Positions 52,482-63,732 of a stretch of 64,000 bases of DNA are shown here, piece by piece; position 1 is the stretch's first letter; each line of letters starts with the position of its first letter. The notes beneath the pieces were generated by a model. That model worked only from the letters and a program-made list of their open reading frames with translations, searched no databases and was not told where the DNA came from. The position numbers were made by a program, and so were the translations under genes. This stretch comes from an uncultured Gammaproteobacteria bacterium (GTDB lineage Bacteria > Pseudomonadota > Gammaproteobacteria > SZUA-229): contig CALLCZ010000052.1 of assembly GCA_937998645.1 (NCBI GenBank), positions 2,724 to 66,723 on the forward strand, written 5' to 3'.

Positions 52482-53984
52482 ATGTGCGGTATCGTTGGTA
52501 TTGTCAGCCACTCTCCGGTCAACCTGGATTTGTATGAGTCACTCTCTGTGCTGCAGCACAGGGGCCAGGATGCGGCAGGTATCATGACCTGCGAGGATGA
52601 CCGGTTTTTCATGCGCAAGGGTAATGGCCTGGTACGCGATGTGTTTTTCAAGCAGCACATGGAGCGCCTGCGCGGCAATATGGGCATCGGTCATGTGCGC
52701 TACCCAACCGCAGGCTGTTCATCATCACTCGAGGCGCAGCCGTTCTATGTGAATTCCCCTTACGGCATTGCACTCGCGCATAATGGCAATCTGACGAATA
52801 CCGAGGCGCTGAAGGAACAGCTGTTCCTCGATGACATGCGTCATTTGAATACCGAGTCAGACACTGAAGCACTGCTTAATGTGTTTGCGCACGAGCTTCA
52901 GTTACTGGCCAAGCCCGATTTTGACAAGGAGGATATCTTTGAAGCGGTAGCAGCTGTACACGAACGCTGCAAGGGCGGCTATGCCGTTATCGCGATGATC
53001 GTTGGCAAGGGTGTTCTCGCGTTCCGTGATCCCAATGGCATTCGCCCCGTCGTTTATGGAAAACGTGAAACGGCTGCGGGTGCCGATTACATGATTGCAT
53101 CTGAAAGCGTTGCATTGCAGGCACAGGGATTCGAGCTGGTGCGCGACCTGATGCCAGGCGAAGCTGTATTCATTGAACAGGACGGCGTTCTGCATACGCG
53201 CCAGTGTGCAGCAAATCCCAGGCTTGTACCTTGTATTTTCGAGCTGGTTTATTTTGCCAGGCCTGATTCAATTATGGACGATGTTTCCGTATACAAGGCA
53301 CGCCTGAGAATGGGACAGAAGCTGGTGCAGAAAATTCTGCGTGAATTTCCCGATCATGATATCGATGTTGTTATTCCGATTCCGGATACCAGTCGAACTT
53401 CAGCACTGGAGGTCGCCTTCCACCTGAATGTCAAATACCGCGAAGGCTTTATCAAAAACCGTTACATTGGACGTACCTTTATCATGCCCGGGCAAACGGA
53501 GCGCAAGAAGTCAGTGCGACAGAAACTGAATCCCATCGATCTTGAATTCCAGGGCAAGAATGTTTTGCTGGTCGATGATTCGATCGTACGTGGCACGACT
53601 TCGAAACAGATCATACAAATGGCGCGCGAAGCCGGTGCCAACAAGGTTTATATGGCCTCGGCCGCACCACCTGTGCGTTATCCCAATGTGTATGGTATCG
53701 ACATGCCTGCCCCGGAAGAGTTTGTGGCACATAATCGTACTGTTGAGGAAATAGCGCAGGCGATTGGAGCTGACTGGCTGGTTTACCAGGATCTTGATGA
53801 CCTTGTCGAGGCTGTTCAGAAAGGTAACGAAAAACTGCAGGAATTCGATTGTTCCTGTTTTGACGGCAAGTATGTAACCAATGATATCGATGAAAACTAT
53901 TTTCGCAGGCTGGAATTGCAGCGAAATGATGCAGCCAAGATGAAGCACCGGGGCAGCCAGTCTGCTGAGACAGTCGAGTTATAA
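52482..53984 (+). CDS. purF: Amidophosphoribosyltransferase
   Basis: 500 aa. N-terminal nucleophile MCGIVGIV. Ntn-glutamine amidotransferase domain. PRTase motif ([14 protein letters not shown]). Confidence 0.95.
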
Positions 53985-54101
53985 CGCCGGTTATCCGCTT
54001 ATCCAGCAACACGCGCTTTCATTTCAGGTAGAACAAACAGATTCAAATATCACTGAATAGCTGCTACTGTTAATACATCGCACTACGCATGTATTTAATA
54101 A

Positions 54102-54569
54102 ATGACTGAAAATCTTATTCCCGGCATACGCAACGCTGTACGTGCAGTCATCACGCAAGATGACGCGGTTCTGCTGCAACGCAAGATTGATGATAATGGT
54201 GCAGAACGCTATGCACTTCCTGGCGGGGCACAGGAGCACGGAGAGAGCCTGACCGAAGCACTGCAGCGCGAATGCGAAGAAGAAATAGGTACACGGGTTG
54301 AAGTCATCGATCTGCTGTTTGTCGGTGACTATTTCAAGCTGAGGCAAACATCACCACCGACAACAAGGCAGTTACTCGAATTTCTGTTTGCCTGTAACGT
54401 AGGGCCAGACTATCAACCCCGGAATGGGCCGCGCCCGGACAAACACCAGGTCGACGTAGAATGGGTTCCAGTCAACCGACTGGATGAAATCAATCTTGTG
54501 CCTGTTGATTATGTTGAGTTGCTGCGGAAACAGAAACAGTCTCGCATTTATGTCGGGCAAGTGTTTTGA
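54102..54569 (+). CDS. Nudix hydrolase
   Basis: 155 aa. Nudix box GGAQEHGESLTEALQRECEEEIG (Gx5Ex7REUxEExGU). Confidence 0.8.
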   Translation: MTENLIPGIRNAVRAVITQDDAVLLQRKIDDNGAERYALPGGAQEHGESLTEALQRECEEEIGTRVEVIDLLFVGDYFKLRQTSPPTTRQLLEFLFACNVGPDYQPRNGPRPDKHQVDVEWVPVNRLDEINLVPVDYVELLRKQKQSRIYVGQVF

Positions 54570-54575
54570 TTCATC

Positions 54576-56216
54576 ATGGATTTGCAGCAAAGCATCCGGC
54601 ATAACCTCGAATTTCTCCAGACCGAACTGGTCAGCCGTCTTGAGAGCATCAAGACCTACCTGGATGATACCTCGCCTGAGGCGGCAGAAAGCATATTCAA
54701 ACGCAGCGGCTATATATCCAACCTGAAGCAACGCATCCATGATGCCTGCTACAGGTATATAGCGGAAACAGATAACTCGGATACGCCTGAAGTTCTTCGT
54801 GTCCGCGCCATCGATATCATTGCAACCGAACTCGAAAACATTGCCGGACTGGGTGAGGAGTTTGTGCAGCAGTCGATCTACCTTGAAGATCCGGGAAGAA
54901 AGAATTTTCCAAGGCTGTTATCACAGATTGATCTTGTCATCGAAGCCGTCGCCATGGTGCACACTGCGCTGTTCGAGAACGACACGCAGGTCGCTATAAA
55001 GATCGGTCGCACCCAGGGAAGGCTGGAACGGAAGTTCAGAAAACTGCTGAAAAAGAATGCCGCATCGCTGCGCGATACCTCGGATGCGGAGAACCTGCTC
55101 AGTATCTCCTTTACTGCCTACTCCATAGAACGCATGGGAGACAGCCTGCTCACGATCAGCGAAGCCATTATTTCAAGTAACCTCGGCATGGTGATGGACA
55201 GCGCCCGGTTCCAGGCGATGCAGGATATCAGCAAGATCACTGACAGCGCGAACACAGAGGAACTGCATATCCAGAATGTTGCCGAGACGCGCTCGGGCGC
55301 GGCGATATCGAGTATACAATTGCCTGACGGTGAGAGTGGCAGTTACCCCGCCATTTTCAAGCAGGGACATACCAAGAAGCTCAAGCAGGAGCGTAAAGGT
55401 GTCGAGAGCTGGCACGATGTGTTCCCGGGCCTGGCGCCGCAGATCCTCTCATGGAAAAAGAAAGGCAAGTCGGCTTCGCTGTTGATCGAGCACCTGTCAG
55501 GCAACACCTTTGAGCAGATTGTGCTGAACGAATCGACCGAAACACTCAATGACGTATTGCAGGAATTGAAAAATACGCTGCATAGCGTGTGGACTGAAAC
55601 ACTGGCTGACAAACCGGTATCTGCGGAATTCATGCGACAGCTCGACAAACGAATCAGCGACGTGTATGCGGTGCACCCGGAGTTTCACGACAGCTTGCAG
55701 GTCATATGCGGGCATAAAGTACCGTCTTTTGACAGCCTTGCAGAAAAAGCGGCCGAAGTCGAAAGCGGACTGCAGGCGCCGTTCTCTGTTTACATTCACG
55801 GTGATTTCAACATAGACAATCTCATCTATGATTCTGATAACAGGCAGATACGCTACGTGGACCTGCATCGTTCGCGCTACATGGATTACGTGCAGGATGT
55901 ATCTGTGTTCATGGTGTCGAATTACCGCCTGCAGGTGCTTGACCCGGTGGTGCGTCAACGCATTGCCGCAGTGATATACAATTTCTATCGCATTGCTGCA
56001 GAGTTCGCAGCAAACAACAAAGACAGTACTTTCGAATTTCGCCTGGCCTTCGGTCTGGTTCGCTCACTGGCAACCTCCACCCGGTTCATACTCGACCGCG
56101 ATCTCGCCCGCGGTATGTTCCTGCGTGCCCGCTACCTGCTGGAGCAGATCGTCAGCCTCGAGCCTGCAGCCTATGAAAACTACCGTGTTCCAGTAGAGGA
56201 GATATTTTGTGGTTAG
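54576..56216 (+). CDS. PhoU-domain / protein-kinase-like (APH/choline-kinase fold) phosphotransferase fusion protein
   Basis: 546 aa. N-terminal ~240 aa with PhoU-like helical repeats, including SIERMGDSLLTISEAI (compare the PhoU ERIGDHATNIAE motif). C-terminal kinase-like domain with Brenner motif HGDFNIDNLIY and downstream YVDLHRS...D. Confidence 0.65.
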   Translation: MDLQQSIRHNLEFLQTELVSRLESIKTYLDDTSPEAAESIFKRSGYISNLKQRIHDACYRYIAETDNSDTPEVLRVRAIDIIATELENIAGLGEEFVQQSIYLEDPGRKNFPRLLSQIDLVIEAVAMVHTALFENDTQVAIKIGRTQGRLERKFRKLLKKNAASLRDTSDAENLLSISFTAYSIERMGDSLLTISEAIISSNLGMVMDSARFQAMQDISKITDSANTEELHIQNVAETRSGAAISSIQLPDGESGSYPAIFKQGHTKKLKQERKGVESWHDVFPGLAPQILSWKKKGKSASLLIEHLSGNTFEQIVLNESTETLNDVLQELKNTLHSVWTETLADKPVSAEFMRQLDKRISDVYAVHPEFHDSLQVICGHKVPSFDSLAEKAAEVESGLQAPFSVYIHGDFNIDNLIYDSDNRQIRYVDLHRSRYMDYVQDVSVFMVSNYRLQVLDPVVRQRIAAVIYNFYRIAAEFAANNKDSTFEFRLAFGLVRSLATSTRFILDRDLARGMFLRARYLLEQIVSLEPAAYENYRVPVEEIFCG

Positions 56217-56457
56217 CCCGCATTTCTCACCAGGCCGCTACGTAACTGGAGTAACCGTATGAATATAAAATCAGAAGATCGATTTCAATCAAATACAGTC
56301 TGTTTAGTGGGGCGCTATTTCGTTCCATGCGCATCTGTAGCGTCCCTGAGCACGCATCTTCCCTCAAACCATAGCTATGGCTATGCTTTTCAGTCCAGAC
56401 GCGCACTCAGAAACACTACAGATGCACCTGAATCCGAAATCCTGGTGAGATATGCGG
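56217..56457 (+). promoter_or_regulatory. Repeated leader element 1: 18-bp inverted repeat spanning the whole intergenic region and overlapping the SD and start codon of the ATP-grasp gene
   Basis: Left arm cccgcatttctcaccagg (56217-56234, right after the upstream stop). Right arm cctggtgagatatgcggg (56440-56457) contains GGUGAGA (SD-like) and the ATG at 56452. Complementary in 17 of 18 positions. Confidence 0.55.
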
Positions 56458-57342
56458 GCTGATCCAAGAATCGGTGTTGTCGGCCTGCCTGGCAAATGGT
56501 CAACGGAAACGCTGGCGGATGCTGTCGAAGCCAGCACAGGGATGCGGCTTGTTATCGATATGAGCGATGTTGCGCTTGATCTCGACGGGCGCAAACTTCT
56601 GTATGGTAAACATGATTTGTGTGAGCTCGATGCTATCATCGTGAAAAAAATCAGCCGTGAATACAGCCCCAACTCGATCGATCGTCTCGAACTGCTGCGC
56701 GTGGCCGAGGCAAAGGGTGTGCGCGTATTCAGCCCGGCACTCAGCATGCTGCGCCTGATTGACAGGCTGAGTTGTACCACAACAATGGCAAATGCCGGGA
56801 TTCCCATGCCACCGACATCGATAACTGAAGATATCGGCCAGGCGGAAGAGGCAGTACGACAGTACGGCAGTGCTGTGTTCAAGCCGTTGTTTTCCACCAA
56901 GGCAAGGGGAATGATTGTTGTTGATGCAGCTGATCCGGAGATAGAGCGTATCGAGCAGATAAAGGATTTTCATCAGCACAATCCAATGATGTATATCCAG
57001 AAAAAAATGGAATTACCCGGCCAGGACCTCGGCCTGGTTTTTCTTGGCGGTGAATACCTGGGCGCCTATGCCAGGGTGTCGGAAGGCAGCTCATGGAATA
57101 CCACGATACTTCATGGTGGCCGTTATGCAGCGGCAGAACCGGATGCCAGCTGGGTCGAAATTGCACAGCGTGCGCAGGGCCTGTTTAATATGGATTACAC
57201 CACGGTGGACATGGCGGAAACTGAAGATGGACCTGTTGTGTTCGAGGTTTCCGCATTCGGCGGCTTTCGTGGTGCGAAAGAGGGTCTGGGTATAAACGTT
57301 GCGGAACGCTATGTTGACTACGTACTGAGCAAACTTGACTGA
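56452..57342 (+). CDS. ATP-grasp ligase (RimK/alpha-L-glutamate-ligase-like)
   Basis: 296 aa. ATP-grasp fold (VFKPLFSTKARGMIVV, MMYIQKKMELPGQDLGLVFLGGEYLGAYAR). Starts with ATGCGGGCT inside a repeated leader element. Confidence 0.75.
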   Translation: MRADPRIGVVGLPGKWSTETLADAVEASTGMRLVIDMSDVALDLDGRKLLYGKHDLCELDAIIVKKISREYSPNSIDRLELLRVAEAKGVRVFSPALSMLRLIDRLSCTTTMANAGIPMPPTSITEDIGQAEEAVRQYGSAVFKPLFSTKARGMIVVDAADPEIERIEQIKDFHQHNPMMYIQKKMELPGQDLGLVFLGGEYLGAYARVSEGSSWNTTILHGGRYAAAEPDASWVEIAQRAQGLFNMDYTTVDMAETEDGPVVFEVSAFGGFRGAKEGLGINVAERYVDYVLSKLD

Positions 57343-57343
57343 T

Positions 57344-58435
57344 ATGAATGACGATCTAAATAGCATAAAGCAGATGTTGACGGGCGATAACGAATTGCTG
57401 CCGTCATCGGTATGTCTGCAACTGATGGACTATCGGCTGGCTATACGCAGTAATTCAGAGCGCTTCCTGCAGTGCATGCAACGCTATTTTTCACACGTGC
57501 TGGCAGCGTCAGGCGATGACGTGCGTGCCGAAGTGATCGCAATAGAGCGTGACATCGTGAATACCAGTGTTGAATTTGTCGACTGGAAACGAGAGCCAGG
57601 TAAAACCGGCCGTAAAGATGCGATTTACGATTTTCCTGCTGGCCGGCTGGTGCGGAAAGTGCGCACGGGCATGCTGTTTCTGCAAAGCGATCGGGACCTG
57701 GTCGTGGCAGGGCCCTGTCTTGAATATGATAACCAGGTGATCAATTTCATCAATTCACAGTTCCTGAACTGGCTGCAGAATGATGGCTACCTGCTATGCC
57801 ATGCGGCCGCACTGTCGCGTAACGGCCATGGCCTGGCGATAGCGGGTTTGTCGGGCGGTGGTAAATCAACGCTGATGCTAAACCTGATGGATGACGCGGC
57901 GACCGCTTTTGTAAGCAATGATCGGTTGCTGGTGCGCAGGCAGGGAGAAACGACACATGCGGTCGGAATTCCCAAGCTGCCACGCATCAACCCGGGCACC
58001 ATTGTGCATAATCCGCGGCTGTTTCCGCTGATTGATGAAAACTCACGTGAACAACTGCTGCAACTGGATAAAAAGGAATTGTGGAAGCTGGAACAGAAAT
58101 ATGATGCCAATATCAATGAGCTTTACGGTCCCGGGCGGATCCAGCATGAAACAGGCCTGTACAGGTTCCTGGTATTGAACTGGCAGCATGACACAGACAA
58201 AGAGCTGCAGGTGAACAGGGTAGACCTGTCGCAGCGCTCGGATCTTTTGTCTGCAATCATGAAACCTTCAGGTCCTTTTTACATGGATACAGCAGGGGTT
58301 TTCAACAGTGATGATGCATTCCCGGAGGCTTCAAACTACCTGACCGAACTTGCAGATGTGGAAATTTATGAGGCCAGCGGCAAAATTGATTTCGAACGAC
58401 TGGGAACAGTGTGTGTTAACGAACTGCTGGTTTGA
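57344..58435 (+). CDS. HprK-related P-loop kinase/phosphorylase-like protein
   Basis: About 363 aa; ATG overlaps the ATP-grasp stop region (an in-frame TTG at 57335 is also possible). C-terminal domain matches the HPr-kinase C-terminal pattern H-AAAL...G.GLAIAGLSGGGKSTLMLNLMDD. Confidence 0.65.
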   Translation: MNDDLNSIKQMLTGDNELLPSSVCLQLMDYRLAIRSNSERFLQCMQRYFSHVLAASGDDVRAEVIAIERDIVNTSVEFVDWKREPGKTGRKDAIYDFPAGRLVRKVRTGMLFLQSDRDLVVAGPCLEYDNQVINFINSQFLNWLQNDGYLLCHAAALSRNGHGLAIAGLSGGGKSTLMLNLMDDAATAFVSNDRLLVRRQGETTHAVGIPKLPRINPGTIVHNPRLFPLIDENSREQLLQLDKKELWKLEQKYDANINELYGPGRIQHETGLYRFLVLNWQHDTDKELQVNRVDLSQRSDLLSAIMKPSGPFYMDTAGVFNSDDAFPEASNYLTELADVEIYEASGKIDFERLGTVCVNELLV

Positions 58436-58480
58436 ATCTGAAGAAAATGACGGCAGGGCAAACGAGCAAGCGGGTATACA

Positions 58481-59452
58481 ATGGCGCGTGAACTTTTGAT
58501 TTTCAGACACGGCAAGGCGGTTGGTAATACAAACGGTGATGATTACTCCCGTCCGATCACCGACAGAGGCAAGCGCGGTTCACAGCGAATGGGCGCCTGG
58601 CTATGGCAGAAAAACATCAGGCCGGATTACATCGTCAGTTCACCGGCCGAGCGTGCCTATGTATCAGCGCAGAAACTTTGCAAGGCCATGGGCGACGATG
58701 CGACATCAATCGTGACTGACAGGCGCCTGTACAGGGGTGATCTCAATTCGTTGCTGAGCGTGCTTGCTGATTGCCCGAAGAACAGGCAAAGGGTCATGCT
58801 GGTCGGCCATAATCCCGCGCTCGCAGAACTGTTGTTATACCTGCTGGGCGGCAAGGCACCGCTGCCGGACGACGGCAGGCTGCTGCCCACGGCGGCGCTG
58901 GCGCGAGTGGTTATGCCGGGTAACTGGAAAAAACCCGGGTTTGGTTGCGCGCAGCTGAAATCATTGACCCGGCATGAGGATCTACCGAAAAAATTCCCCT
59001 TTCCTGCGCCCGACGGCAAGGAAAAAAGAGATCGGCCCGCCTACTATTACCGGCAATCTGCCGTGATACCGTACCGCATGCGCAAGAATCAACTGCAGGT
59101 CATGCTGGTCGGTTCGAGCAAGCGCAATCACTGGGTGGTGCCCAAGGGGATTCACGAGCCTGGTATGTCGGCACAGAAATCCGCAGAAATAGAAGCTTAT
59201 GAAGAAGCAGGCATTCGCGGTACGGTGAGCAAATCCATGCTCGGCGAATACGAGTATCCCAAGTGGGGAGCAAGCTGCAGGGTTGAGGTCTATGCTATGA
59301 GTGTCGGAGAAATACTGCCTGACAGTGAATGGGAAGAAACACACCGTGGCAGGAAATGGCTGTCGACAGATGAAGCGGCCGGTCTGGTCAAGGAGCCGTC
59401 GCTGCGGCCGATGATCCAGTCCCTTGCCGGCTTTATTGAAAGGAAGAGTTAA
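58481..59452 (+). CDS. SixA-like histidine phosphatase fused to a Nudix hydrolase domain
   Basis: 323 aa. N-terminal phosphohistidine-phosphatase signature (LLIFRHGKA...LVGHNPAL). C-terminal Nudix box (KGIHEPGMSAQKSAEIEAYEEAGIRG). Confidence 0.7.
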   Translation: MARELLIFRHGKAVGNTNGDDYSRPITDRGKRGSQRMGAWLWQKNIRPDYIVSSPAERAYVSAQKLCKAMGDDATSIVTDRRLYRGDLNSLLSVLADCPKNRQRVMLVGHNPALAELLLYLLGGKAPLPDDGRLLPTAALARVVMPGNWKKPGFGCAQLKSLTRHEDLPKKFPFPAPDGKEKRDRPAYYYRQSAVIPYRMRKNQLQVMLVGSSKRNHWVVPKGIHEPGMSAQKSAEIEAYEEAGIRGTVSKSMLGEYEYPKWGASCRVEVYAMSVGEILPDSEWEETHRGRKWLSTDEAAGLVKEPSLRPMIQSLAGFIERKS

Positions 59453-59465
59453 ACACATGGATAAC

Positions 59466-59610
59466 CCGCGTTTCTCACCAGGCGGCGTAGTAACTGATGA
59501 GACATAGTCCATTGGAGTAAAGCTGAAATGATGAAAAATACCGTGTGTTATTCAAGCGTGCCTATCACGGTTCCTGCGTCTGCTCCCGTGATCCTGGTGA
59601 GAAATGCGGG
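59466..59610 (+). promoter_or_regulatory. Repeated leader element 2: same inverted repeat in front of the histidine-phosphatase gene
   Basis: Left arm cccgcgtttctcaccagg (59466-59483). Right arm cctggtgagaaatgcggg (59593-59610) includes the ATG at 59604. The single difference gives a G-U pair. Adjacent flanks (ggcgtagtaactg; gatcctggtgag) are also shared with element 1. Confidence 0.55.
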
Positions 59611-60308
59611 CTAGAACCATCGCAGCCCTGATTCGCCATGGCGAATACCAGCAGCAGGCGGATACACCGAGTGCGCACCAGCCTTATGCACTTACCGCGC
59701 AGGCTAAAGCCGACGTGCACGACGAAGTTGACAGCTTTTCCGCTTTGCTCGATAAGCATGCATTGGAAATAGCGCACCGGGTCGATAGTTCGAACATGCT
59801 GCGGGCCTGGCAGACGGCGATGATCTATGTCGAAAAACTGTATCAGCATGAAATGCCAAGCAAACTGATTGACAGTTATGATGCGCTTGCAGAGCGCGGA
59901 CTCGGTGCTGTTGCCAACATGACCATCCAGCAGATAGAAAAAGTCATTGTTGAGGATCCACGTTATCAAGAACCGCCGCAGAACTGGAAATCAGACAGCC
60001 ATTACTGCCTGCCGTTTCAGGGTGCAGAGTCGCTGATGCAGGCAGGTGAGAGAGTGGCTGCACATCTGCAACAGCAAATGCATAAGCTGCGTGCTGAAGC
60101 CAGTGTGGATACGGTAAAACTGTTTATTGGACATGGCGCAGCGTTTCGTCACGCGGCTTTTCACCTGGGCATTCTTGAATTCGAACAACTGGCACAATTC
60201 AGTATGTTCCACGCGCGACCTGTACTGATCGAATATCTCGATGATGGCAGCTGGCGTCATATCGGTGGTGACTGGAAAATTCGTAACGCAGTAAACGGGC
60301 TGGATTGA
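59604..60308 (+). CDS. Histidine phosphatase (phosphoglycerate-mutase-like) family protein
   Basis: 234 aa. N-terminal RHGE (AALIRHGEY) and second His motif (LFIGHGAAFRHA). Starts ATGCGGGCT inside the second copy of the repeated leader element. Confidence 0.7.
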   Translation: MRARTIAALIRHGEYQQQADTPSAHQPYALTAQAKADVHDEVDSFSALLDKHALEIAHRVDSSNMLRAWQTAMIYVEKLYQHEMPSKLIDSYDALAERGLGAVANMTIQQIEKVIVEDPRYQEPPQNWKSDSHYCLPFQGAESLMQAGERVAAHLQQQMHKLRAEASVDTVKLFIGHGAAFRHAAFHLGILEFEQLAQFSMFHARPVLIEYLDDGSWRHIGGDWKIRNAVNGLD

Positions 60309-61645
60309 TCGTGAGTCATCTTCACAAGCTGGTGCCGGACTACCAGGGTATTGAACACACAGGTATTCAACTGCCTGTTGAAACCCAGAAGTGGCTTCAT
60401 GGAAGGAAACGCTCGCTGCAGTCGAGAAGGCTGAACCATCAGCAAACTGCGCAACAGCTATCGGACCTGCTTGCAGAGCATGAATGGACCTGGCCGAGCA
60501 GAACAGTCTATTTTTTAAGTGATCTGCATGCCGATGTCGATGCGCTGACGGCTTCTTTGATTGCATCCGGCGGAGTTAAGGCAAGCGGGAAAAAACACCG
60601 TCATCTAAAGCTCACCAAGCAGGGAAAACAGGCGCAGTTTTTAATTGGCGGCGACTGCTTCGACAAGGGTCCGAGCAATCTTGCGTTGTTGAGAACACTG
60701 AACAGGCTGCATGATCGTGGTGCACGCATGCGTATACTCGCGGGCAATCATGATATCCGGGTCATGCTGGGCATGCGCAACGTCAACCGTAAAAATGATC
60801 CAGGATGCGAGCACTTCTTTATTCGCATGGGCGCAAAAGCGGTGCCCTTCCTCAAGGAAATAAATGACAACTATCTTGCAGGTGCGCACAGCCTGAAGGA
60901 TGTGCCTGGAAAACGAAAATGTGAACAGCGTCTTTATCCGCCCGAGCAATGGTTTGACGAGTTTCCTTTACAGGTGGCAGATTTATTACCGCAGAAGATC
61001 ATCGATAAGGAACTGCGGCGTGTTGTAGAGAAAAGAGAAGACTTCGAGGCGCAATGCGAGAACGTGGGACTTTCTACCCGAAGGGCCTATGCTGCTGCAT
61101 TACAATGGCAGCGATTGTTTCTGCGCGATAAAGGCGAGTTCAGCTGGTTTTTCAGGCGCATGCGTCTTGCCATGAGCAATGGATCATTTCTGTTCGTGCA
61201 TGCAGGGCTGGATAACAACATCGCGCACCTGATCAATCAGAAAGGTATTAAACGGGTCAACCGGGAATTCAACAAACAACTGCAGGGTAATCCCATGCGG
61301 TTTTATTATGGTCCGCTGGCCAACGCGATACGCACTAAATATCGCCCGGGTGACCGGCAGCTGACAAAAAAAGGCGCGCAGCAGGTCCATGAAAACGATA
61401 TACATGTCATTATTCATGGGCACAAGGCGATGCGTAACGGGCAGCGTATCTCGGTTCGAAAGACCATCGTCAACTTTGAATGCGATGTCACACTGGATCG
61501 GCATTCGCGGCGCAGAGACGGTCTCGAGGGATCCGGCGCCGGTGTTACTATCATCAGGCCGGATAAAAAAATCATCGGTATCAGTACCGATCACCCTTAT
61601 GTGAAAGTATTCGATCCGGGTGATTTGCTACAAAACGGAGCTTAA
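60305..61645 (+). CDS. PPP-family metallophosphoesterase (Ser/Thr-phosphatase / ApaH-like)
   Basis: 446 aa. Motifs YFLSDLHAD (GDxHG variant), LIGGDCFDKGP (GDxxDRG), ILAGNHD (GNHE), IIHGH. Confidence 0.7.
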   Translation: MIVSHLHKLVPDYQGIEHTGIQLPVETQKWLHGRKRSLQSRRLNHQQTAQQLSDLLAEHEWTWPSRTVYFLSDLHADVDALTASLIASGGVKASGKKHRHLKLTKQGKQAQFLIGGDCFDKGPSNLALLRTLNRLHDRGARMRILAGNHDIRVMLGMRNVNRKNDPGCEHFFIRMGAKAVPFLKEINDNYLAGAHSLKDVPGKRKCEQRLYPPEQWFDEFPLQVADLLPQKIIDKELRRVVEKREDFEAQCENVGLSTRRAYAAALQWQRLFLRDKGEFSWFFRRMRLAMSNGSFLFVHAGLDNNIAHLINQKGIKRVNREFNKQLQGNPMRFYYGPLANAIRTKYRPGDRQLTKKGAQQVHENDIHVIIHGHKAMRNGQRISVRKTIVNFECDVTLDRHSRRRDGLEGSGAGVTIIRPDKKIIGISTDHPYVKVFDPGDLLQNGA

Positions 61646-61646
61646 T

Positions 61647-61919
61647 ATGAAAAATGGCGACAACTCATTCTGTCACGAATCACTGCAGGACAGGGAAACG
61701 ATCGCGGATATCCTGTCATCCCTGCAGCAGGGTCTGAGTAATGGCACATTGAAGTTCAGCGATGAAGACAACGAAATCACACTGAAGCCGTCAGGCCTGT
61801 TGAACCTTACCGTAAAGGCTTCAAGCGATAGCGACCACAACGTGCTTGACGTGCGTGTTTCCTGGACAAGTAAAAAGTCCAAAAAATTGAAAAAGGAACT
61901 CAGGATATCGGTGGACTGA
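61647..61919 (+). CDS. Small amphi-Trp-domain-like protein (tentative)
   Basis: About 90 aa. SD GGAG 7 nt upstream; start immediately follows the phosphatase stop. Sequence MKNGDNSFCHESLQDRETIADILSSLQQGLSNGTLKFSDEDNEITLKPSGLLNLTVKASSDSDHNVLDVRVSWTSKKSKKLKK resembles the amphi-Trp domain family as I remember it. Confidence 0.5.
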   Translation: MKNGDNSFCHESLQDRETIADILSSLQQGLSNGTLKFSDEDNEITLKPSGLLNLTVKASSDSDHNVLDVRVSWTSKKSKKLKKELRISVD

Positions 61920-62057
61920 ATATCGCGTTTCTCCCCTGGTGCAAAACTCAGCAGGCGTATGTGGCAAGACCGATGCTGTATCAGCAAAAACATTCATCGT
62001 GTTGTATGGTTGCTGATGTGATATTAACTATTCCGAATAAACAGGGACAATAAAGCC

Positions 62058-62540
62058 ATGTATTCCATCCGCGTCAATGTCGGCGAACAGAAGCTCTATC
62101 TGTTGAACGAGCAGGGTGTTGCTGAACGTGAATATCCTGTATCCACTTCAAAGTATGGCGTTGGCAATGAAAACGGCAGTGAGAAAACGCCACTCGGCCT
62201 GCACCGTATCAAAGACAAGATTGGCGGCTCGATGCCGATCAACATGGTCATGGTTGGCCGTGAACCCAAAGGTCTGCTGCAGGATTGCATTAACGAGGGT
62301 ATGGAACTGCCAGATGATGTGATTACCAGCAGGATCCTGTGGCTGGAAGGCATGGAGCCGGGAAGAAACCAGGGCGGCTATGTAGACACGTACAACCGTT
62401 ACATATACATTCATGGCACAAGTGAAGAAAACAAAATCGGTACACCGGCCTCGATTGGCTGTATACGAATGATGAATGAAGATGTTGTTGAACTGTATCG
62501 TCTGGTAGACACAGGAACAGAAGTATTAATAGAAGAATGA
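62058..62540 (+). CDS. L,D-transpeptidase (YkuD-domain) protein without recognisable signal peptide
   Basis: 160 aa. Catalytic motif HGTSEENKIGTPASIGCIRMMNEDV (H...C). N-terminus MYSIRVNVGEQKLYLLNEQG is not signal-like. Confidence 0.75.
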   Translation: MYSIRVNVGEQKLYLLNEQGVAEREYPVSTSKYGVGNENGSEKTPLGLHRIKDKIGGSMPINMVMVGREPKGLLQDCINEGMELPDDVITSRILWLEGMEPGRNQGGYVDTYNRYIYIHGTSEENKIGTPASIGCIRMMNEDVVELYRLVDTGTEVLIEE

Positions 62541-62541
62541 A

Positions 62542-63732
62542 ATGACTGATTCAAAAAAAATAAATCCGCAGGAATACGGTTTCGCTACCCGTGCAGTTCG
62601 CGCCGGCCAGGAACGCACCAGCGAGGGTGAAAACAGCGAACCGATATTCCCTACATCCAGTTATGTATTCGCTTCGGCAGCGGAAGCAGCAGCGCGGTTC
62701 TCGGGTGAGCAGCCGGGCAATATATATTCCCGCTTCACCAATCCGACGGTGCGTACCTTTGAAGAACGGCTGGCCGCAATGGAAGGCGCCGAGTGTTGCG
62801 TTGCCACGGCCTCCGGCATGTCGGCTATTACGGCCACCTGTATTGGTCTGCTCAGGACAGGTGATCACATTGTTTCTTCGCGCAGTATATTTGGCACTAC
62901 AACCGTGTTGTTCGAGAACTTCCTGGGCAAGCTCGGTATTGCAACCAGCTTTGTTGAACTATCAGACCTGGCTGCGTGGGAGCAGGCGATCAAGCCCGAA
63001 ACTAAATTACTGTTTCTGGAGACGCCGTCAAACCCGTTGACTGAACTGGTCGATATTGCAGCGCTGGCCGAAATTGCACACAGGCATGGCTGCCTGCTGG
63101 TGGTTGATAACTGCTTCTGTACGCCGGCATTGCAACAGCCCATTGCACTCGGCGCCGATATCATTATTCATTCTGCAACCAAGTATATCGACGGCCAGGG
63201 ACGCTGTATGGGTGGCGCTGTTTGTGGAACACATGATGTTGTCGGTGACGCAGTCTATAGTTTCCTGCGCACCGCAGGACCGACCATGAGTGCATTCAAT
63301 GCATGGGTTTTTATCAAGGGGCTGGAGACGCTGAAACTGCGCATGCAGGCGCACAGCACAAATGCACTGGCCCTGGCGCAATGGCTGGAACAACAGGCGG
63401 CGGTTGAGCGTGTGTATTACCCGGGCCTGGAAAGCCATCCCCAGCATGCACTGGCAAAGCAGCAGCAAAGCGGTTTTGGCGGTATCGTTGCTTTTGAACT
63501 CAAGGGTGGCAAGGATGCGGGCTGGAACCTGATTGATGCCACGCGCATGATCTCGATCACGGCCAACCTGGGTGATACCAAAACCATGATCACGCATCCT
63601 GCGACAACCACGCACGGAAGATTGACACCGGAACAACGCCAGGATGCCGGTATCTCGGATAGCCTGATTCGTGTTGCCGTCGGACTCGAAGACATGGATG
63701 ACATCAAGGCTGACCTTGCGCGTGGTATGTGA
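62542..63732 (+). CDS. metZ: O-succinylhomoserine sulfhydrylase / cystathionine gamma-synthase family PLP enzyme
   Basis: 396 aa. Cys/Met-metabolism PLP-dependent fold, with PLP-Lys context HSATKYIDGQG. Sits next to purF as in the Pseudomonas purF-metZ arrangement. The metZ versus metB assignment is tentative. Confidence 0.8.
   Translation: MTDSKKINPQEYGFATRAVRAGQERTSEGENSEPIFPTSSYVFASAAEAAARFSGEQPGNIYSRFTNPTVRTFEERLAAMEGAECCVATASGMSAITATCIGLLRTGDHIVSSRSIFGTTTVLFENFLGKLGIATSFVELSDLAAWEQAIKPETKLLFLETPSNPLTELVDIAALAEIAHRHGCLLVVDNCFCTPALQQPIALGADIIIHSATKYIDGQGRCMGGAVCGTHDVVGDAVYSFLRTAGPTMSAFNAWVFIKGLETLKLRMQAHSTNALALAQWLEQQAAVERVYYPGLESHPQHALAKQQQSGFGGIVAFELKGGKDAGWNLIDATRMISITANLGDTKTMITHPATTTHGRLTPEQRQDAGISDSLIRVAVGLEDMDDIKADLARGM

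Follow-up and report, generated by a model that had tools for sequence, protein, structure and literature searches.

The closest described relative of the locus analyzed here is the 'GAK system' of TIGRFAMs/NCBIfam, which as a kind is defined by gene co-occurrence alone and whose members are the amphi-Trp protein (TIGR04354), HprK_rel_B (TIGR04355), grasp_GAK (TIGR04356) and CofD_rel_GAK (TIGR04357). The original prediction described this system as functionally uncharacterised, and full-text literature searches by its names indeed gave no account of it, the sole match being a proteomics table with an amphi-Trp protein among its entries. We have analyzed one such locus within a 64 kb stretch of DNA, referred to here as the window. 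Positions 54102-61919 of the window form a single co-directional operon, which is an extended gammaproteobacterial form of the GAK system. The ATP-grasp ligase, P-loop kinase and small protein, which had been assigned to this system in the original prediction, all score above the curated cutoffs in the HMM search proposed at that time, and all three lie in the one operon. The window copy goes beyond the GAK models in having five more conserved genes (a PhoU::APH kinase, two Nudix proteins, a histidine phosphatase and a metallophosphatase), and it differs from them in lacking the CofD-like member, for which there is no match across the 64 kb. The eight genes together encode two kinases, a glutamate-type ligase, five phosphatase/Nudix domains and a 90-residue protein.

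The operon is located between purF (52482-53984; TIGR01134, 528 bits, cutoff 350) on the left and metZ (62542-63732; NF006003, 705 bits, cutoff 522) on the right. All nine extra genes predicted between these two are present as plus-strand ORFs with the predicted coordinates, and the domains first assigned to them are upheld by profile matches. The first encodes a Nudix hydrolase of 155 aa with an intact Nudix box (54102-54569; PF00293, 68 bits). It is followed by a 546 aa kinase with an N-terminal PhoU and a C-terminal APH-type phosphotransferase domain (54576-56216), the 296 aa GAK ATP-grasp ligase (56452-57342; TIGR04356 grasp_GAK, 439 bits, cutoff 300) and HprK-related kinase B, or HprK-B (57335-58435; TIGR04355 HprK_rel_B, 343.6 bits, cutoff 200), which is 366 aa long from a TTG start or 363 aa from the ATG at 57344. 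Next are a 323 aa SixA-like His_Phos_1::Nudix fusion recognised by domain matches and conserved motifs (58481-59452), a PGM-type histidine phosphatase of 234 aa (59604-60308; His_Phos_1), a PPP/ApaH-like metallophosphoesterase of 444-446 aa (60305-61645; PF00149, 36.7 bits) and the 90 aa amphi-Trp protein (61647-61919; TIGR04354, 63 bits, cutoff 31; PF20068, 33 bits, cutoff 27). The amphi-Trp gene starts at the ATG at 61647; a GTG at 61620 was rejected. The ninth gene, for a leaderless YkuD (L,D-transpeptidase-like) protein (62058-62540), had been counted with the cassette. It is ElsL-like, confined to the purF-metZ lineage and goes with metZ, leaving a unit of eight genes. Alignment of eight upstream regions from this lineage points to a conserved candidate operator/promoter motif, AATAGCTGCTACTGTTAATAC (54056..54076, plus strand), about 25-45 nt ahead of the first start codon; the clade consensus is AATAACTGTTACTGTTAAT.

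The same genes recur elsewhere. In most adequately flanked loci they share the order Nudix, PhoU::APH kinase, ATP-grasp, HprK-B, SixA::Nudix, His-phosphatase, metallophosphatase, amphi-Trp, at 40-67% identity. A genome scan found the first eight genes together in 32 of the 44 loci that have adequate flanks; the remainder mostly lack the first Nudix gene (Nudix1) alone or the His-phosphatase/metallophosphatase pair, and a few have a permuted order. This grouping far exceeds chance. In a metagenome scan, every amphi-Trp match preceded by about 1.5 kb of sequence or more ends a cassette. The invariant core consists of the PhoU::APH kinase, ATP-grasp, HprK-B and amphi-Trp, and this quartet is intact at 34-37% HprK-B identity and in the shuffled gene orders of two distant lineages (L173 and L176). 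The neighbouring kinase, phosphatases and Nudix enzymes are conserved operon members and not incidental. Nudix1 is accessory: it is missing from Marinobacterium, Methylophilaceae-type and some other versions, the loci without it including L016, L037, L038, L061 and L083-L085. Both Nudix genes are missing from L083-L085, L152 and L163. The His-phosphatase and metallophosphatase, missing from L043 and L074, are nearly always present or missing as a pair, with one exception (L049), and L173 has no hydrolases at all. The hydrolases behave as modules, present or absent by lineage. A CofD-like protein of the phospho-alcohol transferase family is an extra member in most related loci (CofD_rel_GAK, 539 bits, cutoff 340) and adjoins the cassette in at least 28 of 80 genome-scan loci. 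Among 44 adequately flanked and otherwise complete eight-gene loci, 14 lack it, as does L176; in L173 it is part of the core, which also includes two amphi-Trp genes.

The segment had been regarded as horizontally inserted. This holds solely on a long evolutionary scale; the cassette is found in unrelated genomic contexts in other lineages. There is no sign of recent transfer, either in composition, which is that of the flanks, or in position, which is shared by relatives. The proposed comparison of GC, GC3 and codon usage showed no departure from the flanks (RSCU correlation r 0.91 for cassette versus flanks, 0.965 for flank versus flank), and the proposed synteny comparison placed the cassette at the same purF-metZ site in relatives whose HprK-B is 65-77% identical. 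A recently acquired genomic island or anti-phage defence system set into a housekeeping block would fit the rarity of the family (296 clusters at 50% identity among 1.84 billion representatives), the variation in context between lineages and the two short inverted-repeat elements inside the cassette, whose right terminal repeats contain the ATG of the ATP-grasp gene and that of the PGM-type phosphatase gene, respectively. It is nevertheless very improbable, given the matching composition, a site unchanged at only 65% HprK-B identity, the lack of a tRNA gene in the window and of an integrase domain among the nine ORFs, and a PADLOC result limited to a single generic Nudix match.

The original prediction also proposed a phospho- or nucleotide-linked modification cycle or signalling pathway, a reading that our analysis supports. 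The cassette, widely conserved yet unstudied, is probably a phosphate-linked modification switch. Our best explanation, put forward tentatively and at less than even odds, is a reversible cycle of phospho- or glutamyl-modification on the amphi-Trp protein, gated by PhoU and tied to phosphate status. The 90-residue protein would be the hub of a self-contained switch, as its target or receptor. The PhoU-fused kinase, the HprK/PEPCK-fold P-loop kinase and the RimK/MptN-type ligase would act as writers that add phosphate, possibly several in succession, and perhaps glutamate, most likely at or beside the F-R-H-E-S-L-Q-D motif (Ser12, possibly His10). As erasers, the two Nudix domains would cleave diphosphate linkages, while the SixA-like and PGM-like histidine phosphatases, with the PPP-type metallophosphatase, would strip the remaining phosphate. 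We infer the covalent modification itself and which enzyme acts on which residue, and likewise a gating by PhoU according to phosphate status and an output in phosphate or polyphosphate handling. The switch is supported by GAK membership above curated cutoffs, by the invariant quartet across distant lineages and by the position of every sufficiently flanked metagenomic amphi-Trp gene at a cassette end.

The writers are open to a second reading. The kinase N-terminus is a full two-repeat PhoU (E 3e-11 for its profile against whole PhoU structures); its C-terminus is a protein-kinase-like phosphotransferase with an invariant HGDxNxDN catalytic loop and downstream Asp, and matches the APH, EcKL and choline-kinase families. 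The ligase belongs to the RimK/LysX/MptN clade (PF08443; MptN 149, rimK_fam 105 and LysX 87 bits), with LysX/ArgX and RimK as its nearest solved structures; its best-scoring characterised family is MptN, a cofactor glutamate ligase, and there is a weak CofF match besides. HprK-B has the P-loop GLSGGGKST, and its predicted fold aligns best with ATP-dependent PEP carboxykinase, across both domains. Together with CofD, these affinities have a small-molecule look that tells against a switch on the amphi-Trp protein. The main rival, only slightly less likely, is a cycle in which a phosphate-rich metabolite or alarmone is built by the two kinases and the ligase, joined where present by the CofD-like transferase. 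The product, possibly glutamylated or diphosphate-bearing, would be degraded stepwise by the Nudix, histidine-phosphatase and metallophosphatase enzymes, and the amphi-Trp protein would be its non-covalent receptor or effector through an R-H-x-S-x-Q motif and a basic tail. Nudix enzymes and an ApaH-like motif are typical for X-diphosphate compounds, and five hydrolase domains against three ATP-using enzymes suggest turnover of a multiply phosphorylated compound. However, the window and many loci lack CofD, there is no nucleotidyl-transferase for making a CofD-type donor, and a version without hydrolases exists.

All the catalytic motifs of the cassette enzymes are intact, which also supports the switch on the amphi-Trp protein. 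RHG and GHNP and the Nudix core [KR]-E-A-x-E-E-A-G are conserved in the SixA-like::Nudix fusion, RHG and GHG are invariant in the PGM-type phosphatase, and DxH, GDxxDKG, GNHD and HGH are invariant in the metallophosphoesterase, which matches ApaH and PPP structures at the motif level only.

The amphi-Trp protein is modelled as a folded 90-residue protein unlike anything solved, with no solved structural relative. In the window its motif reads F8-C-H-E-S12-L-Q-D15 and is predicted to precede a helix that is followed by a four-stranded sheet. The family motif F-[RKC]-H-E-S-L-Q-D is almost invariant in a protein otherwise only about 40% identical, an argument for the switch; L176 matches it exactly, and L173 has FKYESLLD. 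Ser12 is invariant, and R-V-S-W73 is conserved. However, a phosphate-binding site made up of R, H, S and Q ahead of a helix N-terminus would be equally possible. The protein co-varies specifically with the PhoU kinase: in a partial Mantel analysis of 54 loci, in which shared ancestry is not fully removed, partial r was 0.58 (0 of 999 permutations), against 0.18 for HprK-B, 0.20 for the metallophosphatase and -0.19 to -0.04 for the other four families. In both distant lineages (L173 and L176) the amphi-Trp gene lies directly upstream of the PhoU kinase gene. This covariation and adjacency favour the switch; the small-molecule cycle leaves both unexplained, as it does the presence of a small non-enzymatic protein in the invariant core.

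Ser12 admits another reading. Acyl carrier proteins have a D-S-L attachment site, and CofD-family chemistry (NDP-X + ROH -> RO-P-X + NMP) parallels phosphopantetheinyl transfer. By this analogy the amphi-Trp protein might be a carrier whose Ser12 takes a phosphodiester-linked prosthetic group from a nucleotide-diphospho donor via the CofD-like transferase; the ATP-grasp would lengthen this group by glutamate in the manner of the F420 tail, and the Nudix and metallophosphoesterase would remove or recycle it. The invariance of Ser12, its E-S-L-x-D context just ahead of helix 1, the kinship of the ligase to the MptN and CofF tail ligases and the L173 core, with CofD_rel_GAK and two amphi-Trp genes, all point this way. 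We consider a carrier unlikely, since the ACP-site likeness is short, an enzyme to synthesise the donor is absent, and CofD is missing from the window, from the 14 loci noted above and from L176.

The tie of the proposed switch to phosphate is suggested by PhoU, a phosphate-sensing adaptor fold, which is present in every version examined (L173 and L176 included), by neighbouring genes and by upstream Pho-box-like sites. Genes related to polyphosphate, phosphate or Mg2+ (CHAD, PPK1, Na/Pi::PhoU or CNNM) lie within 10 kb of the cassette in 6 of 30 HprK-B clades, and PPK2 and Na/Pi cotransporter genes are near it in further loci. Pho-box-like sites occur upstream of 7 of 64 loci, versus 1.0 +/- 1.1 in shuffles. 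Against this tie, the neighbours are found in a minority of clades and not in the window, and the window copy has no Pho-box-like site (best match, 5 mismatches). The same neighbours, PPK2 among them, together with ParA-like genes in the flanks of several lineages, would suit a polyphosphate-granule protein, whose Lys-rich tail binds polyphosphate while the enzymes tune binding by negative charge, so that the operon controls granule formation or mobilisation. This overlaps the switch and adds a specific output claim, which we regard as improbable. It accords with the charge bipolarity of the amphi-Trp protein (net -6 over residues 1-70, +5 over the Lys-rich residues 71-90). Many cassette carriers are also sulfur oxidisers and symbionts, groups that store polyphosphate. 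An amphi-Trp protein is, in addition, among the most abundant proteins of Dissulfuribacter thermophilus (PMC13490349). Against granules, the basic tail is variable in both sequence and length, and the neighbourhood link reaches only those 6 clades.

Among characterised systems, several offer precedents that by analogy would support a reversible switch on the amphi-Trp protein. RimK acts on ribosomal protein S6 and LysX/ArgX on LysW, both of them small proteins. The window ligase belongs to the same ATP-grasp clade as these and MptN/CofF and resembles RimK and LysX in having the gene for a small partner protein close by; it nevertheless falls below the cutoff in all of the RimK, LysX, MptN and CofF equivalog models. 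RimK and LysX substrates are acidic at the C-terminus, whereas that of the amphi-Trp protein is variable and usually not acidic (an EEE ending is found only in the second amphi-Trp protein of L173), leaving the role of the ligase in the switch unexplained. HPr-kinase homologues repeatedly phosphorylate a Ser of lasso precursor peptides (PMC8498205). The window differs from HPr and lasso-peptide systems in having neither an HPr gene nor RiPP machinery, and the modelled amphi-Trp fold bears no relation to any solved structure. HprK-B scores 17.7 bits against a cutoff of 240 for the HPr kinase/phosphorylase equivalog, and full-length HprK/P structures align with it over only 146-152 residues, so the N-terminal domain is unmatched. 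It is also about 150 residues shorter than ATP-dependent PEP carboxykinase, with only about 10% identity and no Pfam PEPCK match.

For the erasers, mycobacterial MutT1 is the only characterised protein of Nudix plus SixA-like architecture, and it dephosphorylates phospho-NDK and sensor kinases, in a tested set that included the phosphate-sensing SenX3 (PMC11784022, PMC12407098). Both MutT1 and SixA are protein phosphohistidine phosphatases (PMC11784022, PMC12407098, PMC12934123). The window fusion pairs the two domain types of MutT1 and E. coli SixA, with RHG and Nudix motifs intact, but in the opposite order to MutT1, SixA first, and it scores 27.9 bits against a cutoff of 475. A broader comparison may be drawn with eukaryotic inositol-pyrophosphate/SPX phosphate signalling, which employs an ATP-grasp-type enzyme and a protein-kinase-like kinase alongside histidine phosphatases and Nudix diphosphatases, and has a dedicated sensor. 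No homology to the window enzymes emerged above the superfamily level and no inositol-related gene is present; the analogy is one of logic only; at that level, both the enzyme types and the control by phosphate or polyphosphate would parallel those of the window cassette.

The nine extra ORFs originally predicted between purF (52482-53984; TIGR01134, 528 bits) and metZ (62542-63732; NF006003, 705 bits) were all found on the forward strand, and Pfam and NCBIfam scans upheld every domain call. Eight of them form a cassette at 54102-61919. The first cassette gene encodes a Nudix domain protein (Nudix1), and it is followed by genes for a fusion of a complete PhoU domain with an APH/EcKL-type kinase (the family profile aligns to whole PhoU structures, E 3e-11), a RimK-type ATP-grasp protein (PF08443, 46.6 bits, cutoff 21), the P-loop kinase HprK-B (whose start gene callers put at the ATG at 57344), a SixA-like histidine phosphatase with a fused Nudix domain, a PGM-type histidine phosphatase, a metallophosphoesterase bearing the PPP/ApaH set of motifs, and an amphi-Trp protein of 90 residues that starts with the ATG at 61647. 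The ninth ORF (62058-62540) encodes a leaderless YkuD protein. Upstream of purF are folC, a SPOR-domain gene and cvpA, which in one relative are preceded by trpB-trpA-accD.

The assignment to the GAK system made in the original prediction is correct, as three families score above the curated cutoffs. The ATP-grasp protein matches TIGR04356 (grasp_GAK) with 439 bits (cutoff 300), HprK-B matches TIGR04355 (HprK_rel_B) with 343.6 bits (cutoff 200), and the amphi-Trp protein matches both TIGR04354 (63.3 bits, cutoff 31) and PF20068 (33.2 bits, cutoff 27); all 12 aligned HprK-B homologues also match TIGR04355. These members are co-located in one cluster of eight co-directional genes with three tight junctions: ATP-grasp/HprK-B (-8 nt), histidine phosphatase/metallophosphatase (-4 nt) and metallophosphatase/amphi-Trp (1 nt). 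No CofD_rel_GAK gene (TIGR04357) was found in the 64-kb window by tblastn with a verified CofD_rel_GAK protein as query. The XXXCH-domain protein (TIGR04358), which we take to be a further member of the system, had no match among the nine window ORFs (E <= 0.01), nor among the cassette proteins and two upstream neighbours of the distant related locus L173 (E <= 0.001). Judged by these profile matches, the window cassette belongs to the TIGRFAMs GAK system, with three of the defining families present, the CofD-like protein absent from the window and XXXCH not seen.

In Pseudomonas, metZ directly follows purF. The cassette had been predicted to be an accessory, horizontally inserted system; its accessory nature stands, and a recent insertion does not. 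Its composition does not deviate from that of the flanking DNA: GC is 0.49-0.56 within the cassette region and 0.49-0.54 in the adjoining flanks, the GC3 ranges overlap, and the RSCU correlation is 0.91 between cassette and flanks, compared with 0.965 between the flanks themselves. There are no tRNA genes in the 64-kb window. The purF-metZ site is also occupied by the cassette in relatives whose HprK-B is only 65-77% identical (L001, L004-L008, L090, L092 and L103, loci from our genome and metagenome scans), and the site is kept in relatives at 65-93% identity. A recent genomic island is ruled out by the flank-like GC, GC3 and RSCU, the lack of tRNA genes and the shared site. In other lineages the cassette is found among unrelated neighbour genes. 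Since relatives share the site and the contexts elsewhere are unrelated, this is an accessory cassette that has been mobile over long times and is a long-standing resident of the window's lineage. A defence island is one of the lesser alternatives for its role; PADLOC gave one generic Nudix match and nothing specific, which leaves anti-phage defence unsupported.

The gene at 62058-62540, which had been read as an L,D-transpeptidase and ninth gene of the insertion, is ruled out as a part of the cassette: it is confined to the purF-metZ lineage, where it abuts metZ (in the window, with a gap of 1 nt). The best match of its product is to ElsL, a cytoplasmic cell-wall-recycling L,D-carboxypeptidase (138.7 bits, below the cutoff of 270), and its probable role is that of a peptidoglycan-recycling enzyme, not of a transpeptidase.

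Several non-coding elements accompany the operon. An upstream motif, AATAACTGTTACTGTTAAT (AATAGCTGCTACTGTTAATAC in the window), is located at 54056-54076, about 25-45 nt before the first gene, and is conserved in the purF-metZ lineage; it differs from the canonical Pho box and may be an operator or promoter. Promoter-like sites occurred at chance level in a promoter scan, and the excess of terminator-like sites in a terminator scan sits within genes or on the opposite strand. Two short inverted-repeat elements (MITE/REP-like), at 56217-56458 and 59465-59610, occupy intergenic junctions within the cassette. Both have terminal repeats of ~19-25 bp in common (GCCCGCATTTCTCACCAGG ... CCTGGTGAGAAATGCGGGC), while their interiors differ; terminal-repeat matches in the window number 4, with 0.1 expected. 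The start codons of the ATP-grasp gene (ATG at 56452) and the histidine phosphatase gene (ATG at 59604) both fall within the right-hand repeat and are preceded, at a distance of a few bases, by GGTGAG, and the element therefore seems to provide a ribosome-binding site and start codon. Both proteins begin M-R-A. Three related loci (L001, L002 and L090) have no gap at these junctions.

The cassette was traced through a genome scan, with one genome per species, that yielded at least 293 genomes with an HprK-B relative; the window proteins were mapped by tblastn in the best 80 of these loci. In these 80 the gene order of the window recurs from Nudix1 to amphi-Trp, at 40-67% identity. Among the 44 loci with sufficient flank, all eight genes are accompanied by a divergent CofD-like gene in 18, the eight genes alone are present, as in the window, in 14, and only the first Nudix gene is missing in 4. 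The CofD-like protein of related loci is CofD_rel_GAK (TIGR04357, 539 bits, cutoff 340), and it adjoins the cassette in at least 28 of the 80 loci. In a metagenome scan that used the amphi-Trp motif as its seed, 241 relatives came up; wherever at least ~1.5 kb of sequence is available upstream, the relative sits at the 3' end of such a cassette. The family is rare, with 296 clusters (50% identity) at E <= 1e-30 among 1.84 billion representatives. Two conserved-neighbour ORF clusters on the minus strand without a Pfam match (L033:6964-7494 and L033:9075-9992) were discarded as antisense shadows of the Nudix1 and ATP-grasp genes. The cassette is also carried by L019 (CAVYIJ010000001.1, 428 kb), a contig labelled 'uncultured Halobacteria archaeon'. 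Its CofD, PPK1 and Na/Pi::PhoU proteins are 71-77% identical to those of the metagenome locus L002, whose arrangement recurs in MAGs labelled Gammaproteobacteria; the archaeal label probably reflects an error of binning or taxonomy.

Other versions of the cassette differ mainly in their hydrolases. Methylophilaceae-type loci have the PhoU::APH kinase, ATP-grasp, HprK-B, histidine phosphatase, metallophosphatase and amphi-Trp genes and lack the Nudix genes, which are likewise absent from four loci that have CofD (L152, L160, L163 and L168). Two loci (L043 and L074) lack the histidine phosphatase/metallophosphatase pair and keep SixA::Nudix. In the distant L173 (HprK-B 34-35% identical) there are no hydrolases at all: an amphi-Trp gene is followed by PhoU::APH, ATP-grasp, HprK-B, CofD and a second amphi-Trp gene, and every GAK model scores above cutoff. 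The equally distant L176 (HprK-B 36-37% identical) has 7 of the 8 families in a shuffled and partly divergent order. From this pattern of core and modules we infer that the PhoU::APH kinase, ATP-grasp, HprK-B and amphi-Trp are an invariant quartet, and the hydrolases behave as exchangeable modules.

Amphi-Trp itself carries a motif, F-[RKC]-H-E-S-L-Q-D, just before a helix, that is near-invariant in more than 60 sequences. L176 has the exact motif and L173 has FKYESLLD in its place, while the remainder of the protein is only ~40% identical. The C-terminus is variable, and RimK-like glutamylation of this end is unsupported for that reason. The second amphi-Trp paralogue of L173 (GCA_016926475.1, 11267-11548) lacks the FxxESLxD motif and ends ...SGEEE, the type of C-terminus that RimK-type ligases extend. 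A prosthetic-group carrier is among the lesser alternatives that we considered.

Covariation among the eight families was assessed in 54 complete loci from Kimura-corrected pairwise distances, by a partial Mantel test (999 permutations) in which each family pair was controlled for the mean of the other six. Amphi-Trp and the PhoU::APH kinase gave a partial r of 0.58, reached by 0 of 999 permutations; the values for amphi-Trp were 0.18 with HprK-B, 0.20 with the metallophosphatase and -0.19 to -0.04 with the other four families. Other links were PhoU::APH/HprK-B (0.48), ATP-grasp/HprK-B (0.47), ATP-grasp/Nudix1 (0.52) and SixA::Nudix/His-phosphatase (0.40). The same core and eraser module emerge from these links as from the presence/absence patterns. 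The specific covariation of amphi-Trp with the PhoU kinase is taken as suggestive, since the partial Mantel test lowers the effect of shared ancestry without abolishing it. In both distant lineages (L173 and L176) the amphi-Trp gene is directly upstream of the PhoU kinase gene.

The GAK system may tentatively be tied to phosphate and polyphosphate genes. The core kinase has a PhoU domain in every cassette version. Loci of the L002 type have the cassette amid CHAD, PPK1, a Na/Pi cotransporter::PhoU fusion, Usp and several CNNM/CorC genes; elsewhere PPK2 lies ~3 kb downstream of the cassette in one locus and a Na/Pi cotransporter ~0.8 kb from it in another. Neighbours of this type occur in 6 of 30 HprK-B clades (clusters at >= 70% identity, loci of >= 15 kb), the window's lineage being outside these six; by a rough estimate this is several-fold over expectation, yet a minority. 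Such neighbours bear on a further lesser alternative, a charge switch of polyphosphate granules. Pho-box-like sites with up to 3 mismatches were found upstream in 7 of 64 loci, as against 1.0 +/- 1.1 in shuffles, a modest enrichment. In Marinobacter xestospongiae (L078) a near-perfect Pho box, CTGTCATTTTACTGTAAA, lies ~80 nt ahead of the first cassette gene, and the window operon has no Pho box upstream (best match with 5 mismatches). Near-consensus boxes (CTGTCATTTTACTGTAAA; ATGTCATCAATCTGTCAC) precede the cassette in cultured or symbiont genomes (L078, L080, L016 and L061), which suggests Pho-regulon control of the cassette in some lineages. Among L002-type loci (e.g. L064:445-1212) bearing CHAD, PPK1 or Na/Pi::PhoU genes, a ParA-like ATPase and an extra His_Phos_1 gene are each found near the cassette in 12 loci, and a LigT (RNA 2',3'-cyclic phosphodiesterase) gene recurs in 9 loci.

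All cassette enzymes retain their catalytic motifs across 27-74 homologues. These include HGDxNxDN and a downstream Asp in the PhoU::APH kinase, the Walker A sequence GLSGGGKST with His156, Asp196 and Arg197 in HprK-B, RHG and GH[GN] in both histidine phosphatases, DxH, GDxxDKG, GNHD and HGH in the metallophosphatase, and the Nudix core [KR]-E-A-x-E-E-A-G with RHG and GHNP in SixA::Nudix (73-74 homologues).

Our preferred reading, held tentatively and at less than even confidence, is a protein switch that would have amphi-Trp as its substrate. Phosphorylation of the conserved motif (at Ser12, possibly His10) would be the work of HprK-B and the PhoU-gated APH-type kinase, and the hydrolases would reset the phosphorylated protein. 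It is preferred because amphi-Trp is in the invariant core, co-varies specifically with one kinase, and is encoded next to the PhoU kinase gene in distant lineages. HPr-kinase homologues put several phosphates on one Ser of lasso precursors (PMC8498205), and such a product would contain a diphosphate bond that the Nudix domains could cleave. MutT1, the sole characterised protein to combine Nudix and SixA-like domains, removes phosphate from phosphohistidine in proteins and targets NDK and sensor kinases, with the phosphate sensor SenX3 among those tested (PMC11784022, PMC12407098), and Ndk is dephosphorylated by SixA (PMC12934123). As a further precedent, the closest solved ATP-grasps, LysX/ArgX and RimK (E 1e-12 to 1e-13), act on small proteins. 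A second reading that fits the data, and that we rank only slightly lower, is a cycle of synthesis and breakdown of a phosphate-rich metabolite, for which amphi-Trp would be the receptor; R-H-x-S-x-Q before the helix N-terminus would then be a phosphate-binding site. The predicted PEPCK-like fold of HprK-B, MptN as the best-scoring characterised family of the ATP-grasp, the APH, EcKL and choline-kinase matches of the kinase domain, and the CofD-like protein beside many related cassettes all favour the metabolite cycle. Neither it nor the protein switch accounts for the ligase role of the ATP-grasp. A broader analogy, which we consider improbable, is with eukaryotic inositol-pyrophosphate/SPX signalling, whose logic the cassette would reproduce in bacteria. 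The two kinases, controlled by the PhoU domain, would assemble a mark of pyrophosphate or oligophosphate. Its carrier would be either Ser12 of amphi-Trp or a small metabolite read by amphi-Trp, and it would be erased by the Nudix and phosphatase enzymes. Phosphate uptake and polyphosphate storage would depend on the state in which amphi-Trp is found.

A full-text search found no literature on the GAK system; the sole mention was in a protein table for Dissulfuribacter thermophilus (PMC13490349), which lists the amphi-Trp domain protein DITHS69_2464 among the most abundant. We rate the cassette as belonging to a known but functionally blank kind. The extended parts list, fold assignment, conserved motif and phosphate association are absent from the literature searched. 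A label for three proteins thereby becomes a defined parts list: a quartet that includes the PhoU-fused kinase, exchangeable eraser modules, and a small hub protein, amphi-Trp, with a strikingly conserved Ser-containing motif. The bacterial choice between polyphosphate storage and release is poorly understood, notably in the sulfur oxidisers and symbionts that carry the cassette. Cultured carriers exist (Marinobacterium spp. and Marinobacter xestospongiae), so hypotheses on the GAK cassette are directly testable. If the hub protein bears serial phosphates that Nudix enzymes remove, bacteria would possess a protein modification cycle of a new type; if the SPX-like analogy is true, it would be a hitherto unknown regulatory layer in sulfur-oxidising and symbiotic bacteria.

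By the families' own criteria the cassette proteins are not HprK/P, PEPCK, RimK, LysX, MptN or MutT1. No close solved relative was found by sequence for HprK-B, the kinase half, the histidine phosphatase or the metallophosphatase; matches to the PDB were zero or at motif level for HprK-B and the metallophosphatase, and a single weak PGM match for the histidine phosphatase. HprK-B has the P-loop catalytic domain fold in common with HPr kinase/phosphorylase, but reaches neither TIGR00679 (17.7 bits, cutoff 240) nor Hpr_kinase_C (18 bits, gathering cutoff 33.3), and it lacks the HprK/P N-terminal domain, as full-length 1knx and 1ko7 align over only 146-152 residues. The PEPCK alignment extends over 292 residues at ~10% identity; HprK-B is thus predicted to share the two-domain fold of ATP-dependent PEP carboxykinase, although it has no PEPCK Pfam or NCBIfam match. 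A link to FomB-like phosphonate-phosphate kinases was dropped, as only 1 of 12 homologues matches (E 0.003). The cassette ATP-grasp has the RimK-type domain of the RimK/LysX ligases, whose partners have a conserved acidic C-terminus, whereas the C-termini of amphi-Trp vary (ISVD, LSVK, VSSK and others). SixA::Nudix has both domains of MutT1 with their catalytic motifs, but scores 27.9 bits with the MutT1 equivalog model (cutoff 475) and has the reverse of the Nudix-first domain order of MutT1.
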